Below, piece by piece: positions 1,701 through 11,151 of a stretch of 11,151 nt of DNA; position 1 is the stretch's first letter, and every line of letters begins with the position of its first letter. A program made the translations under genes and the position numbers. The DNA comes from Candidatus Oleincola secundus (lineage in GTDB: Bacteria > Atribacterota > Phoenicimicrobiia > Phoenicimicrobiales > Stramentimicrobiaceae), in the NCBI GenBank assembly GCA_018400815.1, contig JAGYLS010000056.1:1-11151 (forward strand), in the 5' to 3' direction. The notes under the pieces were generated by a model. It did not search any database. It was not told the origin of the DNA and saw only the letters and a list, made by a program, of their open reading frames with translations.

Positions 1701-1751
1701 GCATTCTATAAGATATCTATATATTTGTTAAAAAGAAAAGGAAGAAAAATT

Positions 1752-2414
1752 ATGAAAAAAAAGATTTTTTTACTGACGTTAATTTGTATCACTTCATTGT
1801 TCACTATCGGTTGTCAGCTGGGCGATTCCGGTCTCTTGTTACCCAACAACCCATCAGCCACCCCGGAGGAGTATTTTACCTTTGATGAGGAGACTAAAAC
1901 AATTACTTGTTATAAGTGTGATTTTGGTGATTTTAACCCTCAAGGAGATGATATCGTGATACCTCCAACCATTGATGGCCTACCCATAGAACATATTGGC
2001 AATAAAGCTTTTAAATCAGGATTTAACACATGGATAAGATCGGTTGTTTTCCCGGATACCATCACGACCATTGGTAGTTATGCATTTTATAGTAATTGCC
2101 TTCATTCTTTAACTATACCGGATAGTGTTATATCCATTGGGAACGCCGCATTTTATTTTAATTCCTTAACATCTATAACCATTCCTGATAATATCAATTT
2201 TATTGATGAGCATGTGTTTGATGGTAATCCTCTAAGATCAATAACAATCGGGTCAGATGTTGATATTTATAGTAAAAATTCTATAGGATATTACGAAAGA
2301 GCTACTCTCCCAACCTTAGTGCCTAAATATGTGGAATTTAAAAGTGTTTATGATGCACATGGCAAAGAAGCCGGCACTTATCAGTTGATTAATATGACCT
2401 GGACCAAGATGTAG
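1752..2414 (+). CDS. BspA-type leucine-rich repeat (LRR_5) lipoprotein
   Basis: Repeats SVVFPDTITTIGSYAF, SLTIPDSVISIGNAAF, SITIPDNINFIDEHVF. ATG at 1752 follows AAGGAAG and gives MKKKIFLL...LFTIG-C (lipobox), so it is preferred over the TTG at 1725. Confidence 0.88.
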   Translation: MKKKIFLLTLICITSLFTIGCQLGDSGLLLPNNPSATPEEYFTFDEETKTITCYKCDFGDFNPQGDDIVIPPTIDGLPIEHIGNKAFKSGFNTWIRSVVFPDTITTIGSYAFYSNCLHSLTIPDSVISIGNAAFYFNSLTSITIPDNINFIDEHVFDGNPLRSITIGSDVDIYSKNSIGYYERATLPTLVPKYVEFKSVYDAHGKEAGTYQLINMTWTKM

Positions 2415-2976: not shown

Positions 2977-4053
2977 TCAATTATAAAGAAAATCATCAAT
3001 AATGTGTTTCTCTTTTAATACATGAATGGCTTTTTTCACCGTAGCAGAATTCATCTTTGCGGTATTTGCTATTTGATTGATAGAAGGATTTTCTCCATCA
3101 AAGACAGTTCCCAACAAGCAGGCAATTCCACGTTGTGTGTTGGTTAAATCCGGCAACAGCCTTAAGCTTTTAACCAAAATATTTCTTTCTCCTAACTGTC
3201 CTCCCCTGAACCGGTATGTGCATTTTTCACAACATACATAGGGAAGCTTTTCTCTTATTCCGCTACATCCGTAATGATAAGATTTCCGGTAGATCTTTTT
3301 AAGTTCAAGATCCGTCAGGGGATTGGCCAGGGACCGGTTTTTCGTCTCTACTATCTTTCTGGCATATTCCCGGGAATTCTTGTTCTGGATCAGGAGATTA
3401 TAAAGAATAAACAAACCGTTATTCCTCTCCCCTTCTTTAAGATCTCTTTTTAATATCTGTCTTATACAATCCATCTTGTGCCCGTGGTATTCTGGTTTTT
3501 TAAATATTATATTCCTATTTTGGAATTTGTCATTAGTATTAAGCAACTTTTCAGGAATAGGCATTATTTTGCTTAGTGGAACTTCATAGGCGTAGTAGTG
3601 GTTTTTTATTACAGAAGGCGGAGCTATAATATAGCTTCCGTTACTTTTTAATTCAAGTCTTTTACCGAACAGGGTATTGGTACTCTTTACCTGGTTGCCG
3701 TTTAAATAGAAATAATAATGGTATCCCCTGTTGGTCTTTACCCTGGTGGTTTTATTGATTTCAGGTAATGTTTCGCCAAGGTCCGGCAATAGAGAAAGAT
3801 CATCAACATCAATCACTGCCAGCTGGCTGATGTGGCCGGTAACAATTCCGATATTTGGTGTGTCAAACTGGTTATGCCATTTCAGGATATCGTTTACCGT
3901 TGCCCTCTTGTACTGATACTTTTTCCAGAATACAAATGGTCTTTTCTCTTTATCAACCGGAATCAGGCTATATCCGTATTGTAAATACTGGTTGATCATA
4001 CTGTGAATATAATTCAAAACTTCCCGGGGCAAAGACAATAGCAGAAAATCCAA
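2977..4053 (-). CDS. Bifunctional DNA primase/polymerase (Prim-Pol, AEP superfamily) with PriCT-like domain, Cys cluster and C-terminal winged HTH
   Basis: Prim-Pol motifs GYSLIPV..KRP, NIGIVTG..LAVIDVD, VKTNRGYHYYF, ELKSNGSYIIAPPS. PriCT-like EGERNNGLF...NPLTDLEL. Cys cluster YGC..CCEKC. HTH SINQIANTAKMNSATVKKAIHVLKEK. Start is TTG 4053 (AAGGGG upstream) or ATG 3999. Confidence 0.88.
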   Translation of the reverse strand: MDFLLLSLPREVLNYIHSMINQYLQYGYSLIPVDKEKRPFVFWKKYQYKRATVNDILKWHNQFDTPNIGIVTGHISQLAVIDVDDLSLLPDLGETLPEINKTTRVKTNRGYHYYFYLNGNQVKSTNTLFGKRLELKSNGSYIIAPPSVIKNHYYAYEVPLSKIMPIPEKLLNTNDKFQNRNIIFKKPEYHGHKMDCIRQILKRDLKEGERNNGLFILYNLLIQNKNSREYARKIVETKNRSLANPLTDLELKKIYRKSYHYGCSGIREKLPYVCCEKCTYRFRGGQLGERNILVKSLRLLPDLTNTQRGIACLLGTVFDGENPSINQIANTAKMNSATVKKAIHVLKEKHIIDDFLYN

Positions 4054-5629: not shown

Positions 5630-6109
5630 CTACTGGCTACCTTGAATAATATAAGTATAATTATTATTTAGTGTATGGCGAAAATTGCTTTCTCCTAACA
5701 TCCCCTTAATGGTATTCACAAGAGCCATGTTCGTTTTTGTAGTAACTGAGATTCCATAAATAACACCGGTATGGGTATGTTCAGGATTACCATTTTCACC
5801 ACTCCAGTTATCCCAATCGTACAATATATCCAAATCAGGTACCTTGAAAGAAAATTGTTCATCTAAATACGGCCGTAATTTTGGGGGTATACTACCTGGT
5901 CCGCTATCATCGGGATAATCTCCAGCACCTGCATAGTAAGTGGAAACAGCAATATGTATACTGTGGAGATCTCCAATAACTTTAGCAGCATCTGCTTTTT
6001 TTATTAATCTATAATACTGAGGAAAGGCTAAATTAACTAATATACCAATAATTGCTACAACAACCATTAACTCAATAAGGACAAATCCTCTTTCTGTTCC
6101 TTTCTTCAT
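5630..6109 (-). CDS. Type IV pilin / type II secretion pseudopilin (prepilin N-terminal methylation domain)
   Basis: MKKGTERG|FVLIELMVVVAIIGILVNLAFPQY: class III signal peptide with G-1, F+1, E+5. Later Y..GDYP motif. Confidence 0.9.
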   Translation of the reverse strand: MKKGTERGFVLIELMVVVAIIGILVNLAFPQYYRLIKKADAAKVIGDLHSIHIAVSTYYAGAGDYPDDSGPGSIPPKLRPYLDEQFSFKVPDLDILYDWDNWSGENGNPEHTHTGVIYGISVTTKTNMALVNTIKGMLGESNFRHTLNNNYTYIIQGSQ

Positions 6110-6489
6110 CGATTTTTATTCCTTTCTCTCATAATATCCATATTCTCTTTTGTTAATATGCTACCTGCTGGTTCTAAGGAATCATAATAAATAAAGCATT
6201 CGTACCATTGAAGTGTAATCGAATAATGATCAATTGACTTTAAGTTATATTCAAGATAATCGTCATGGATATTTAAGGAATCCAGGGATGTGGGATAATT
6301 TCCGTTTTCTTGATAATAATCTTCTATTTTCCCCTGTAGCTGATATAAATAAATATGAAAATCCTGACAAATTTTTTCAATTTCTTCAGGTTGATTAATT
6401 TTATTAATTTGAGTAAAATTATACCAAGAACTTAGGGCTAAGAATAATATCAATAAAAGTAGAATTATTTTACGATTAATAGATAACAT
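6106..6489 (-). CDS. Membrane-anchored hypothetical protein, pseudopilin (GspG)-like core
   Basis: N-terminal TM helix and KIEDYYQENGNYPTSLDSL. No prepilin cleavage motif. 4-nt ATGA overlap with the pilin gene. Confidence 0.7.
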   Translation of the reverse strand: MLSINRKIILLLLILFLALSSWYNFTQINKINQPEEIEKICQDFHIYLYQLQGKIEDYYQENGNYPTSLDSLNIHDDYLEYNLKSIDHYSITLQWYECFIYYDSLEPAGSILTKENMDIMRERNKNR

Positions 6490-6950: not shown

Positions 6951-8354
6951 TTATTCAAATTTAAATCCTTTTTCTCTGAATAATCTCACACAAACATCTA
7001 CTATTTTGGGATCATAGAGAATACCTTTGTTTTTAATAATTTCCTCCAGGGCTGCATCAATGCCTAAAGCTGCACGATAAGGTCGGTGTGAGGACATGGC
7101 CTCAACTACATCTGCAACACCAATAATTTTGGCCTCCAATAAAATTTCATCACCCTTCAGCCCTTTAGGATAGCCAGAACCGTCGTTTCTTTCATGATGC
7201 TGTAAAATTATTGGAGCAATCTGGTATGGAAAATTTATACCCTTTACAATATCATAACCTTTTTGGGAATGACTCTTTATTAGGCTAAACTCAATATCAG
7301 TGAGCTTGCCAGGATTAGTCAAAATCTCCGAGGGAATCCCTATTTTCCCAATATCGTGAATTAAAGAAGCTATCTTCACGCTTTCAATTTTATCTGGCGA
7401 AAGATTCATTTCCTGTGCAATACGAATGGCAAGTTGAGAAACCCTGATCTGATGCCCGGCAGTATAAGGATCCCTGGTATCCATTATTTTGGAGATTGTT
7501 TCGATAATTGCATCCATGGTTCTTTTCAGCTTATCCTGGGATTGTTTCTGTTCGGTAATATCCAAGGCACTCTCTACCGCTCCAATTATTTTCCCTTCAT
7601 TGTTTCTAACCGGCATCCCAGTTAACATAAAATAACGGCCATCGGGAGTAACCATTTCTCCATTAACCACTCTTCCAGTTTTCCATGCCTTTTCTACAGG
7701 ACATCCTTCACATATAGTTTCCCGTCCTCCCCAGATTTGATAACATTTTTTACCCTTCAATTCAATTAACTTTTTCTTCACAAAATCACAGGCTGTCTTA
7801 TTTGCCCAGATAATCTCGTGTTTCATGTTTTGATAAAAGACCATATCGGGAGCAATATCCAGTATTATAGATTTTTCTTTTTCTGAATCTTTCAAAGCCC
7901 TTTCTAAGTGCTTGCGTTTACTGATATCCCGGGCTATTCCCAGGGCATACATCTTATTATTTATCCTGATAGGGTGAGTAGAAATTTCTACATCTATTAA
8001 TTTACCGTCTTTGCGTTTTAGGGTAAATTCCTGTGGCTCCGTAGGAAGCCCTTTCCTGTTTCTCTTTAGGGTGCTCACAGCTTTAGGAACATCCTTTAAT
8101 GTTAAGAGGCCTGCTTTAAAATAACTCTTTCCAATCAACTCAGAACGGCTGTATCCGGTGATACGTTCGGCAGCTTTATTTCCGTCTATTAAGGTTCCTT
8201 TTAAATCGTTGATGTAGTAACCGTCAGGAGCATAGTCAAAGAGGATCTTAAAACGGCCTTCTGAATTATTCAGTTCTTTTTCTATAACTTCTTTATTTAT
8301 ATTTTTTATCTCCTTTGAAATTAACGGGTTTGGCTTCTGATTATTATCTTCCAT
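6951..8354 (-). CDS. PAS-PAS-HD-GYP protein, predicted cyclic-di-GMP phosphodiesterase
   Basis: Two PAS/PAC domains, then RDPYTAGHQ, HDIGK, HHERNDGSGYP, ADVVEAM..RPYR. ATG at 8354 has an AGGAGG RBS and is preferred over 8378. Confidence 0.93.
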   Translation of the reverse strand: MEDNNQKPNPLISKEIKNINKEVIEKELNNSEGRFKILFDYAPDGYYINDLKGTLIDGNKAAERITGYSRSELIGKSYFKAGLLTLKDVPKAVSTLKRNRKGLPTEPQEFTLKRKDGKLIDVEISTHPIRINNKMYALGIARDISKRKHLERALKDSEKEKSIILDIAPDMVFYQNMKHEIIWANKTACDFVKKKLIELKGKKCYQIWGGRETICEGCPVEKAWKTGRVVNGEMVTPDGRYFMLTGMPVRNNEGKIIGAVESALDITEQKQSQDKLKRTMDAIIETISKIMDTRDPYTAGHQIRVSQLAIRIAQEMNLSPDKIESVKIASLIHDIGKIGIPSEILTNPGKLTDIEFSLIKSHSQKGYDIVKGINFPYQIAPIILQHHERNDGSGYPKGLKGDEILLEAKIIGVADVVEAMSSHRPYRAALGIDAALEEIIKNKGILYDPKIVDVCVRLFREKGFKFE

Positions 8355-8432
8355 TTTCTCCTCCTGTATTATAAACATTCAGTATTCAGCTTCGTTTTTT
8401 GCTGTATATCTGATTATTTTTAAGATAATAAA

Positions 8433-8528
8433 AAAAGCCGGCGGTCTGGCAGCCATAGTGAGGTATTCACTTTAGGCCCATGACTTTGCGTCCTGCCCTT
8501 TCAGACAGTTTGCCTTTATCAGCTTTTG
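8433..8528 (-). ncRNA. Cyclic di-GMP-I (GEMM) riboswitch
   Basis: Minus strand AAAAGCTGATAAAGGCAAACTGTCT-GAAA-GGGCAGGACGCAAAGTCATGGGCCTAAAGTGAATACCTCACTATGGCTGCCAGACCGCCGGCTTTT. Has the GGCAAA, GAAA tetraloop, GACGCAAAG and CCTAA..ATGG receptor motifs. P1 AAAAGCTG/CGGCTTTT. Confidence 0.93.
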
Positions 8529-8726: not shown

Positions 8727-10097
8727 TTAAGGAACATAATAACTTATTACTAATTTAGGTCGTTTTGTAGCATCGTACACATATTCAGAAGACCTAAATT
8801 CGGCTATCTTTTCATTGGTGGACTCATCTGCAGCTTTCAATAAGATGCCATGATTGGCAATGCTTCCATCGATCCAGCCCTGCACTAAATCATCGATATC
8901 CCAGGTTCTCCAGGCTCCACTGGCAGGAGAGACGGTATGGAACGCTTCTGCTTCGGGTAAGCTGCTGGGCCGGTTATTCCAGGTAATGGTATTCTCCTGC
9001 CATTCGCTGGTAACCTGATAGGCACCGATACTGAAGCTCTCTAAACCGGAGCTTTGGTAAAGCCTTAAATCCCCATGGATGATGACAGCGCCCGGGGGAA
9101 GAGAGACAGAACTCAGATCAAATTCCAGATAAGTTCTTTCAATTTTAATACAAGGATCTACCACGACACCTAAGGCAGTATCAACCCCATAATTCATATT
9201 GGGGAATATGTCAGTAATAACAGCATCCTTTCCTTCACTGCCCGGCTGCAGGGTCAGGGTTTCCGCCGGAGCGTAGGTCAGAGCCCAATTGATATAAGTG
9301 GTCTCCCCTGCGGTTACGGTAACATCAGTATCTTCCCTGTTCTGGTAATTTAATAATTCCAGTTTTACGGTATGGGTCCCGGCAGCTACGTTGGTCAGCA
9401 CAATGGGGGTGATGTGACCGGTGTCTATACCATCTAAGTAGACCTTGGCTCCTGCCGGGTTGGAGTTGATATCGATAGAGCCCAAAGCTGAACCTACGTT
9501 GACAGTGACAGTGTTGGTAACACTGCCATTTGTATTGCTGGCGGTTAAGGTGTAGGTAATGGTAGCGGTGGGATTCACCACTTTTGTTCCGGTTGAATCC
9601 ACTGTACCGATACCCTGGTTAATGGTCACACTATCTGCGCCGGTCACATTCCAGCTTAGGGTGACACTCTCTCCGGAGATGATGTGATAAGAGTCAGCAG
9701 TAAAGGAATTGATGGTGGGAGGGTCTGTGCCGGGAGTGACTCCACCGCAGGCAGGCTCTGTAACAGTTATCTTTATAGTATCAGTAAAAGCACTGTCTTC
9801 TGTTATAACGGTGATATTGGCTATGCCTTTTTTTAATGCTGTTACCAGACCATTTTCATCAACTGCAGCTACATCAGTATTATCTGATTCCCAGGTTACT
9901 GCTTTATTGTCAGCATCTTCCGGGGTTACTACTGCAGTTAATTGCAGGGTATCTCCAATATTAATTGACTGGTCATCTTCAATTATGCTTACCCCGGTAA
10001 CCTCTATCACTTCAGGTACCGGTGGTGCACAGCCGGTAAGAATGAAATCAATTAACAACAATATGATAATAGTAAAAACTATTTTATTTGCTTTCAT
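8727..10097 (-). CDS. Surface lipoprotein with Big_2 Ig-like, Ig-like, PEGA and DNRLRE domains
   Basis: MKANK...ILTG-C lipobox (ATG 10097 after AAGGA). Big_2 LQLTAVVTPEDADNKAVTWES. PEGA INSNPAGAKVYLDG..TP. DNRLRE KDAVI..NYG..RTYLEFDLS..ITWNNRP..NHGILLK..RPKLVISY. Confidence 0.88.
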   Translation of the reverse strand: MKANKIVFTIIILLLIDFILTGCAPPVPEVIEVTGVSIIEDDQSINIGDTLQLTAVVTPEDADNKAVTWESDNTDVAAVDENGLVTALKKGIANITVITEDSAFTDTIKITVTEPACGGVTPGTDPPTINSFTADSYHIISGESVTLSWNVTGADSVTINQGIGTVDSTGTKVVNPTATITYTLTASNTNGSVTNTVTVNVGSALGSIDINSNPAGAKVYLDGIDTGHITPIVLTNVAAGTHTVKLELLNYQNREDTDVTVTAGETTYINWALTYAPAETLTLQPGSEGKDAVITDIFPNMNYGVDTALGVVVDPCIKIERTYLEFDLSSVSLPPGAVIIHGDLRLYQSSGLESFSIGAYQVTSEWQENTITWNNRPSSLPEAEAFHTVSPASGAWRTWDIDDLVQGWIDGSIANHGILLKAADESTNEKIAEFRSSEYVYDATKRPKLVISYYVP

Positions 10098-10303
10098 TCC
10101 ATATTTCCTTTCCATTAATTTATTTATTAAGAAATTTGCTATCACATGCGGAATGTTTTATAATTTAAATTAAGATAAATAAAAAGCTTTTAATAGATGG
10201 CATCACTCCTTTTTTGTGTTTAATACTCTTTTATTGTATATTATGTTTATTTATTGTTTATTAAAAAATATCACCTCCAGTCTTATTAGAACCATCCTTA
10301 TCT

Positions 10304-11020
10304 TTAAGCTAGATGCTTGGTTATATCCTTTTTTATCTGATCAGCTCTGCCCTGGGAAAGTCCCAATCTCTGAGCTGTCGTGGTCTGCCGCAAATCCATA
10401 ACAAAGAGATAATAGGTAATATTGCGTTGTAGTTCTTTTATCTTTAAAAAAGCCTTCTGTAGAGTAATAACATCTTCAATAGGCAGCTTAAAATGCTGGT
10501 ATGATTGGCTTCTTATATTTTCCAGTTCCGGTTGAATTTCATCGATATTATCTTCTAAATGATAAATAAAACACACTTCTTTAACTGATTCTCTGCTTTT
10601 AAGTATTTCCTGCAAGCCACTGTTGTTGATATTAATATGGTCGGAAATTTCAGATAGGCTGGGAAACCTTTGATATTTTTTCCGGTAGGTAATAACAAAC
10701 CGGTCAATGCTTTGATTTAAACTGACCAGCCAGTCTGGTTGATTAATTTTATATTTACTATCCATTAAATATTGGTGTATCTCTTTAGTAATAAGGAGTT
10801 GGGCATAGCTTTTAAAATCAATGTTAGCGTTAGAAACTTCCTGATTATAAAGATTTACCGCATTAAGCAAACCGATATAACCAACATTTTCCAGTGTCTC
10901 TTGTGTTTCAGACACGTTTTTAAAATTACAGACAATTTTATCTATCAGAGAAAGATGTTCTTTCAGGAGTTTGTTTTTATTTAAGTGAGACTCCTTCGGA
11001 CATATTGTTGTTGAAAACAT
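10304..11020 (-). CDS. Divergent RNA polymerase sigma factor, SigB/SigF/SigG-like (sigma-70 group 3)
   Basis: AGGAGGT RBS. Region 2 LENVGYIGLLNAVNLY..FKSYA..ITKEI; region 3 PSLSEIS; region 4 DLRQTTTAQRLGLSQ. Confidence 0.82.
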   Translation of the reverse strand: MFSTTICPKESHLNKNKLLKEHLSLIDKIVCNFKNVSETQETLENVGYIGLLNAVNLYNQEVSNANIDFKSYAQLLITKEIHQYLMDSKYKINQPDWLVSLNQSIDRFVITYRKKYQRFPSLSEISDHININNSGLQEILKSRESVKEVCFIYHLEDNIDEIQPELENIRSQSYQHFKLPIEDVITLQKAFLKIKELQRNITYYLFVMDLRQTTTAQRLGLSQGRADQIKKDITKHLA

Positions 11021-11090
11021 TCTTTTTACCTCCTGATATTTTCGTTATAGTTATCCGTTAAATTCAGCTAGTTATTAAAATAAAAAATAA

Positions 11091-11151
11091 ATCGGCAGCC
11101 TGGCGACCTTAGAAAACCCTTAGGCCCATGGCTTTGCGTCTTGCCCTTTCG
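11091..11151 (-). ncRNA. Cyclic di-GMP-I (GEMM) riboswitch, 5' end beyond the window
   Basis: Minus strand CGAAAGGGCAAGACGCAAAGCCATGGGCCTAAGGGTTTTCTAAGGTCGCCAGGCTGCCGAT. Same core as the 8433-8528 copy, about 70 nt upstream of the sigma ATG. Confidence 0.88.

Follow-up and report, generated by a model that had tools for sequence, protein, structure and literature searches.

Sigma-factor mimicry has been described for the PhyR-NepR-EcfG system, in which PhyR is an ECF-type domain that is switched by phosphorylation and acts on a known anti-sigma factor (PMC8103513). In Clostridioides difficile the Cd1 (Cdi-1-3) riboswitch, a class I c-di-GMP riboswitch, precedes the flgB operon that includes sigD and works as a terminating OFF switch (PMC6366702); sigD itself is intact and lies deep in this operon of 23 kb, and the terminator hairpin of Cd1 is a structure separate from the aptamer (PMC9262584). 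The (RsiG)2-(c-di-GMP)2-WhiG complex of Rubrobacter couples c-di-GMP to a group 3 sigma factor for which type IV pili and dgc/pde genes are the suggested targets, with sensing at the protein level by the anti-sigma factor, a flagellar-type promoter and no riboswitch in the text of that paper (PMC8325347). Cyanobacterial SigF, a SigB/F-type sigma factor, controls the major pilin gene pilA, and the accessible text mentions neither a riboswitch nor a degenerate paralogue (PMC7690835). SigB of S. aureus and B. subtilis, which works with RsbW/RsbV, has the consensus GTTTWW-~14-GGGWAW, whose -10 GGG is read by R97, R100 and R110 and whose -35 element is read by a helix with S235, Q236, M237 and R241, where M237 contacts the base opposite the third -35 position (PMC11156646). 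The control of pilus sigma factors by c-di-GMP has precedent.

The locus considered here lies on a stretch of 11,151 nucleotides (the window), which is the entire contig C166 of the 2.02-Mb draft genome (86% complete) of Candidatus Oleincola secundus of the Atribacterota. A sequence-only reading of this DNA had placed a c-di-GMP-I riboswitch directly upstream of an alternative sigma factor gene. At the contig edge, positions 11091-11151 on the reverse strand match the c-di-GMP-I (GEMM-I) family RF01051 in an Rfam search with 49.8 bits (E 1.6e-7, model positions 22-87 of 87), which is above the gathering threshold of 35 bits on a match that lacks the 5′ side; the contig holds the 3′ two-thirds of the aptamer and its 5′ part lies beyond the edge. 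Among the ligand-pocket positions G20, A47 and C92 (Vc2 numbering), A47 is found at 11135 and C92 at 11095, and G20 falls past the edge. A 162-nt contig of run X1 is identical to 11014-11151 and supplies the 5′ half by reaching 24 nt beyond the window; 23 of these 24 positions are those of a canonical G20-type 5′ half (one difference, with relative L176 as reference), and over 63 positions compared with the complete L176 aptamer the X1 contig differs at five, four of them within the known part. Run X1 is probably the source sample, and hence no independent support for the 5′ half. The aptamer as such is real, and the U-rich tract and ribosome-binding site are present as described earlier: the 3′ strand of P1 (11090-11094) is directly followed by a U-tract, a predicted terminator tail, at 11077-11089 (reverse strand), and AGGAGG stands at 11029-11034 (reverse strand) with the ATG 8 nt further, the distance from aptamer to ORF being 70 nt. 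On the coding strand between the aptamer and the gene, where a separate transcription start had been the concern, no sigma-A-like or SigB-like promoter is seen.

The source genome contains eight RF01051 matches, three of which stand before related sigma-like genes (C166, C204 and the frameshifted C179); a search of genome contigs with the window protein as the query gave no match. Across 40 relatives the sigma-like family falls into two groups, A, to which the window gene belongs, and B. An aptamer lies directly upstream of the group A gene at all three source-genome copies and at 16 of the 17 loci of relatives (19/20 in total), the lone exception having only ~140 nt of upstream sequence, and it precedes none of 28 group B loci. 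The linkage that had been suggested for related genomes is conserved and is not due to chance, although the loci have one shared origin and are not independent. Nine further loci from metagenomes comprise four with the aptamer directly upstream, one with it one gene further up, two with too little flanking sequence and two with IS-type insertions. Among 86 genomes examined across the phylum, group A turned up only in the Atribacterota family of the window, where 16 of the 22 genomes carry it. The source names of homologues are Atribacterota or Caldatribacteriota, except for one that is given as Elusimicrobiota. The window resembles the Cd1 locus in that a sigma gene is preceded by a class I c-di-GMP riboswitch, but unlike sigD the group A gene is degenerate and is always the one next to the aptamer, and it has a strong ribosome-binding site. 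Group A genes stand alone, and PAS/HD-GYP/GGDEF or lipoprotein genes come next.

The ligand of the group A leader aptamers is likely to be c-di-GMP, because G20 and A47 are present in all 18 complete leaders; C92-C93 is likewise found in all. A cGAMP-type switch, for which A at position 20 is presumably the mark, is disfavoured by the same invariant G20. Elsewhere in the set, the aptamers at L102 and L137 are parsed with A at position 20 and are candidate cGAMP sensors. The GGC-variant family RF03167 scored above RF01051 in 7 of 16 relatives' leaders, with A47 in all of them. P1 shows compensating changes and pairs at 5/5 positions in 17 of 18 group A leaders, and in 19/19 the aptamer is directly followed by a U-tract (at least 8 U in 12 nt); in contrast to Cd1, no separate strong terminator hairpin is conserved across these leaders. 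An OFF switch in which P1 itself would be the terminator stem is modestly favoured over an ON switch by these features. The ON arrangement is possible by way of a weak local alternative hairpin, mostly of G-U pairs, that pairs 5/5 in 12 of 18 leaders; the pilM ON switch shows that the aptamer can contain a T strand (PMC9262584). The second switches of the tandem pairs at L129, L133 and L138 have neither the long P1 nor the U-tract, lie 31-34 nt from the start codon and are possibly translational.

In the window, the sigma-like gene is followed by the gene of a predicted surface lipoprotein with Big_2, PEGA and CBM96/DNRLRE domains (8727-10145, reverse strand), which is probably co-transcribed with it; a lipoprotein gene also follows in L039, L177-L179 and L182. 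A second, complete c-di-GMP-I aptamer with G20/A47/C92, a 5-bp P1 and a U-tract (8437-8524, reverse strand; RF01051 76.4 bits) precedes a PAS-PAS-HD-GYP protein gene (6951-8378, reverse strand; Pfam PAS_9 and HD_5), a predicted c-di-GMP phosphodiesterase. The order sigma-like gene, riboswitch, HD-GYP is shared with L176, and contig C36 of G000 carries a near-identical second riboswitch and PAS-HD-GYP gene (compare window 6951-8524). Further along, 5630-6489 (reverse strand) holds a pilin-like gene with an N-methylation motif and a small membrane-anchored gene, upstream of which lies a GGGAATA -10-like site with no matching -35. A Prim-Pol domain gene at 2977-4053 (reverse strand) suggests that the region contains a mobile or integrated element, and transglutaminase-like and BspA-LRR lipoprotein genes at 99-1700 and 1725-2414 (forward strand) encode products whose N-termini resemble those of riboswitch-preceded genes in G009 and G017. 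A DtxR/MntR-like gene or its 91-aa remnants precede the subclade of the window (L176:1766-2215, L177, L178, L179, L055, L039), interleaved with further riboswitches in L055 and L039, and a Molybdenum cofactor riboswitch lies downstream of a group A locus at L051:642-763.

The gene behind the aptamer (10304-11020, reverse strand) encodes a SigB/F/G-derived protein of 238 aa and is predicted, from its ORF, its match to TIGR02980 and its residue map, to be a pseudo-sigma. Its earlier description as SigB/F/G-like holds in that TIGR02980 (SigB/F/G) is its best family; its 97.8 bits however fall below the cut-off of 234 and key contact residues are changed. Group A scores 61-106 bits, and full-length group B proteins at ~170-200 bits are also under the cut-off; besides group B, only SigA-sized and weaker TIGR02980 sigma matches were seen. 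The AlphaFold model of the window protein is all helical (pLDDT 76, pTM 0.40), and the top 50 Foldseek matches are all sigma chains with a whole-chain TM of only ~0.30, so that a sigma2-sigma3-sigma4 fold is predicted to be kept, with moderate model confidence. The nearest solved relative is S. aureus SigB (8x6g, E 3e-16), through whose alignment the contacts available from PMC11156646 were mapped onto the family. In the window protein all three -10 positions are replaced, R97 by Q (Q83), R100 by M (M86) and R110 by D (D96); of the -35 helix, S235 and Q236 are kept (S222, Q223), M237 has become G224 and R241 has become Q (Q228). A tyrosine occupies the position of SigB F86.

These changes extend across the group. 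The residue table drew on 120 of 161 homologues and 150 representatives, and omits the frameshifted C179, the partial L055, L056, gene 2 of L061 and gene 2 of L083. The R100 equivalent is arginine in 0/105 group A proteins, as against 33/33 group B loci, 32/32 group B homologues and 145/147 outside relatives. R241 is kept in 2/105 of group A (41 are without the residue, some of them perhaps incomplete proteins) and in all 33 group B loci and 32 group B homologues, and R110 is mostly Asp throughout group A. The S. aureus map transfers imperfectly, because group B too departs from SigB, at R74, F79, R97, R110 and R244. Judged by these residues, the window gene probably does not encode a functional SigB/F/G sigma factor. 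Positive autoregulation by the riboswitch-controlled gene itself was dropped as a candidate on account of the lost promoter-reading residues.

Group B genes are found, mostly as tandem pairs, within pilB-(HD)-pilC-sigma-sigma-DUF6982 x2-pilin operons, and by their sequences are intact SigB/F-type sigma factors related to group A. DUF6982 gave no informative PDB or Atlas match, and the PilB of one group B operon (L056:1668-3395) has a Pfam MshEN match. In the family of the window the first sigma of the pil-operon pair is without sigma4 and ~180 aa long in 16/16 loci (L062, L065-L067, L069, L071-L079, L081, L083); it keeps R100, has a low dN/dS and represents a second degenerate sigma. A two-subunit sigma made of a group A protein and this sigma4-less protein was rejected, helix 4.2 of group A being its degenerate part. 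In a quick tree group A forms one clade (SH-aLRT 100) on a long stem; the tree flags a possible long-branch join of group A with the sigma4-less genes, and therefore no order of descent is claimed. The nearest outside relatives of group B share 40-46% identity, 52 of 150 such proteins are at least 370 aa long, and a GGDEF domain is present in 17 of the 25 long relatives scanned, whose clusters are mostly from Armatimonadota. These SigB/F-like sigma-GGDEF fusions (L152:4001-5410; P0124, P0129, P0131 and others), in which the GGDEF motif is absent from the sequences read, share an FxLPIED segment, and in the single locus examined the fusion gene comes immediately behind pilB-pilT-pilC; a contig search with P0124 gave one true sigma-GGDEF locus among 24.

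In 15 of the 18 complete group A leaders the aptamer is preceded, at a distance of 52-100 nt, by the motif GTCTAA-N13/14-GGGAA(T/C)A. This motif has 146 matches in 41 genomes as against 36 for the reversed control, and in group B loci it precedes a pilin gene in 11 of 15 matches. Of the 58 riboswitches in five genomes, 27 have it within 450 nt on their upstream side, with matches shared between tandem switches. The motif resembles the SigB consensus except at the third base, which is C, and the M237 position is Arg in group B. Arg at this position and the G opposite the C would form a pair, and group B is the inferred reader of the motif because its Arg suits the changed third base. A SigB/F-type sigma factor for a pilin gene would be comparable to cyanobacterial SigF. 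In the subclade of the window the motif is found in one of the six closest relatives' leaders (L041, but not L039, L055 or L176-L178), the promoter region of the window copy itself lying beyond the contig edge. The motif also occurs in genomes with no detected intact group B, e.g. G001, G008, G022 and G040; an assembly gap for the missing genes is indicated only in G000 (pilB cut at the contig start), G019 and G026.

The reading put forward here, which is given somewhat less than an even chance, is that a PhyR-like sigma decoy is under the control of c-di-GMP and tunes an intact sister sigma together with its pilus regulon. Intact tandem SigB/F-type sigmas are encoded within the pilB-pilC operon, and would read the motif, which precedes most group A genes as well as pilins and many riboswitches. 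Group A, in which the sigma fold and the clade-typical FKLPIED segment are retained but DNA- and core-contact residues are changed, would bind a putative inhibitor of group B in the manner of PhyR and so free group B. With somewhat better than even probability, the ligand-stabilised P1 and the U-tract would terminate transcription, and high c-di-GMP would shut the decoy off; at low c-di-GMP the regulon would reinforce itself by way of the decoy. The predicted targets of group B are type IV pilin, surface-lipoprotein and c-di-GMP-turnover genes. Like PhyR (PMC8103513), group A would resemble a sigma factor in fold, have degenerate regions for promoter and core contact, and belong to the regulon of the intact sigma to which it is related. 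Unlike PhyR it is a group 3 protein that stands alone and whose synthesis would be gated by a riboswitch, and the likeness is one of working and not of membership: the window protein, with 238 aa and sigma matches only, has no receiver domain, and no NepR partner is present. The earlier notion of a second messenger wired by RNA directly to a sigma regulon survives in part, in that the proposed circuit touches such a regulon; the gene under control does not have the features of that regulon's sigma factor, and the wiring from riboswitch to transcription is likely to be indirect, because group A has lost contact residues and intact group B has no riboswitch in front of it.

The sequence-only reading had listed no anti-sigma gene in the window, and indeed none was found among the 10 window proteins scanned. 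An RsbW/SpoIIAB-type anti-sigma was not found as a conserved or adjacent gene in a PF13581 search of 41 draft genomes, where the matches are CBS-HATPase proteins, stressosome RsbT-like proteins (two genomes) and long proteins, four loci having been examined in detail. Relative to SigB, whose promoter type the motif resembles, group A has lost key DNA contacts and an rsb operon adjoins neither group A nor group B. Stressosome-like rsbR/S/T/X genes are present at L084 and L089 in two sister-family genomes, with no sigma gene beside them in the stretch read. A more elaborate form of the proposal is tentative: a full-length group 3 pseudo-sigma, transcribed by its intact paralogue and switched by the riboswitch with P1 as the terminator stem, would titrate a novel class of anti-sigma that grips the FKLPIED surface of a cross-phylum 'pilus sigma' clade, for which the fusions to a degenerate GGDEF domain would be a different route to c-di-GMP control in Armatimonadota.

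It is less probable, at roughly one chance in five or slightly better, that group A is an active sigma factor with a new promoter specificity that is switched directly by the riboswitch, a modified form of the earlier model. Many copies, that of the window included, have a full-length fold; region 2.4 is still 69% identical within group A and carries fixed new residues (His82 in 99%, Gln83 in 82%), S235 and Q236 are kept in the window protein, and helix 4.2 is fairly conserved among its closest homologues. Group A is moreover under purifying selection, to judge from a dN/dS of 0.10-0.23 that derives from 5 of 153 pairs (the unsaturated ones only). The position of R100 nevertheless varies between M, L, I, T and S, which is not what a fixed new reader would look like, and conservation within group A is lowest in the recognition helix, at 37% identity as against 80% within group B, with no residue at R241 in 6 of the 18 group A genome loci. 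The net charge of residues 79-98 is -1.8 in group A and +1.6 to +2.1 in group B. The earlier notion of a second messenger wired by RNA directly to a sigma regulon survives in part, in that the proposed circuit touches such a regulon; the gene under control does not have the features of that regulon's sigma factor, and the wiring from riboswitch to transcription is likely to be indirect, because group A has lost contact residues and intact group B has no riboswitch in front of it.

Close to this in standing, and likewise improbable at about one in five, is a dominant-negative sigma factor that binds core RNA polymerase, is blind to promoters and damps group B, which would amount to a c-di-GMP-gated negative feedback. 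Such a protein would fit the predicted sigma fold and would need no extra partner, in keeping with the outcome of the PF13581 search, and region 2.2 is the best conserved part of group A (84% identity within it, 61% to group B). Against this, the equivalents of the E. coli sigma70 core sites D403 and Q406, taken from bioRxiv 2020.09.07.285775 and aligned onto the family, are changed in nearly all group A proteins: Asp is found in 1/105, as against 97% of outside relatives, with N or T in its place, and Gln in 0/105, as against 90%, with E or N in its place. The D to N and Q to E changes are mild and core binding may not be abolished. A core competitor would however not be specific to group B and would hit SigA as well, and it leaves unexplained the conservation of the clade-typical FKLPIED segment, which is 79% identical within group A and, like region 2.2, is as conserved there as in group B. 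The decoy is favoured over core competition because the core residues are changed and the clade-typical surface is kept. That group A is a decaying duplicate whose inherited riboswitch was intended for the downstream HD-GYP/GGDEF or lipoprotein genes is highly improbable: several copies are truncated or broken (C179 is frameshifted, L181 and L182 have IS-type insertions), the downstream genes are typical riboswitch targets and riboswitches are common (40 of 41 genomes), but the low dN/dS, 34 alignment columns that are at least 90% conserved in groups A and B alike, the retention of group A in most genomes of the family and its constant place behind the aptamer with a strong ribosome-binding site all speak against it.

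A search of literature listings gave no riboswitch-gated degenerate sigma factor and nothing on c-di-GMP control in Atribacterota; the gene-association tables of riboswitch surveys may include cases of the former. For annotation, a 'sigma-B' gene behind a riboswitch need not encode a transcription factor. For this uncultured lineage a regulon is proposed that comprises a promoter motif, a cognate sigma factor with a matching Arg change, and pilin and lipoprotein targets. Mimicry of a sigma factor by PhyR is switched by phosphorylation, and a conserved pseudo-sigma gated by a riboswitch would, if true, be a second route to the same end.
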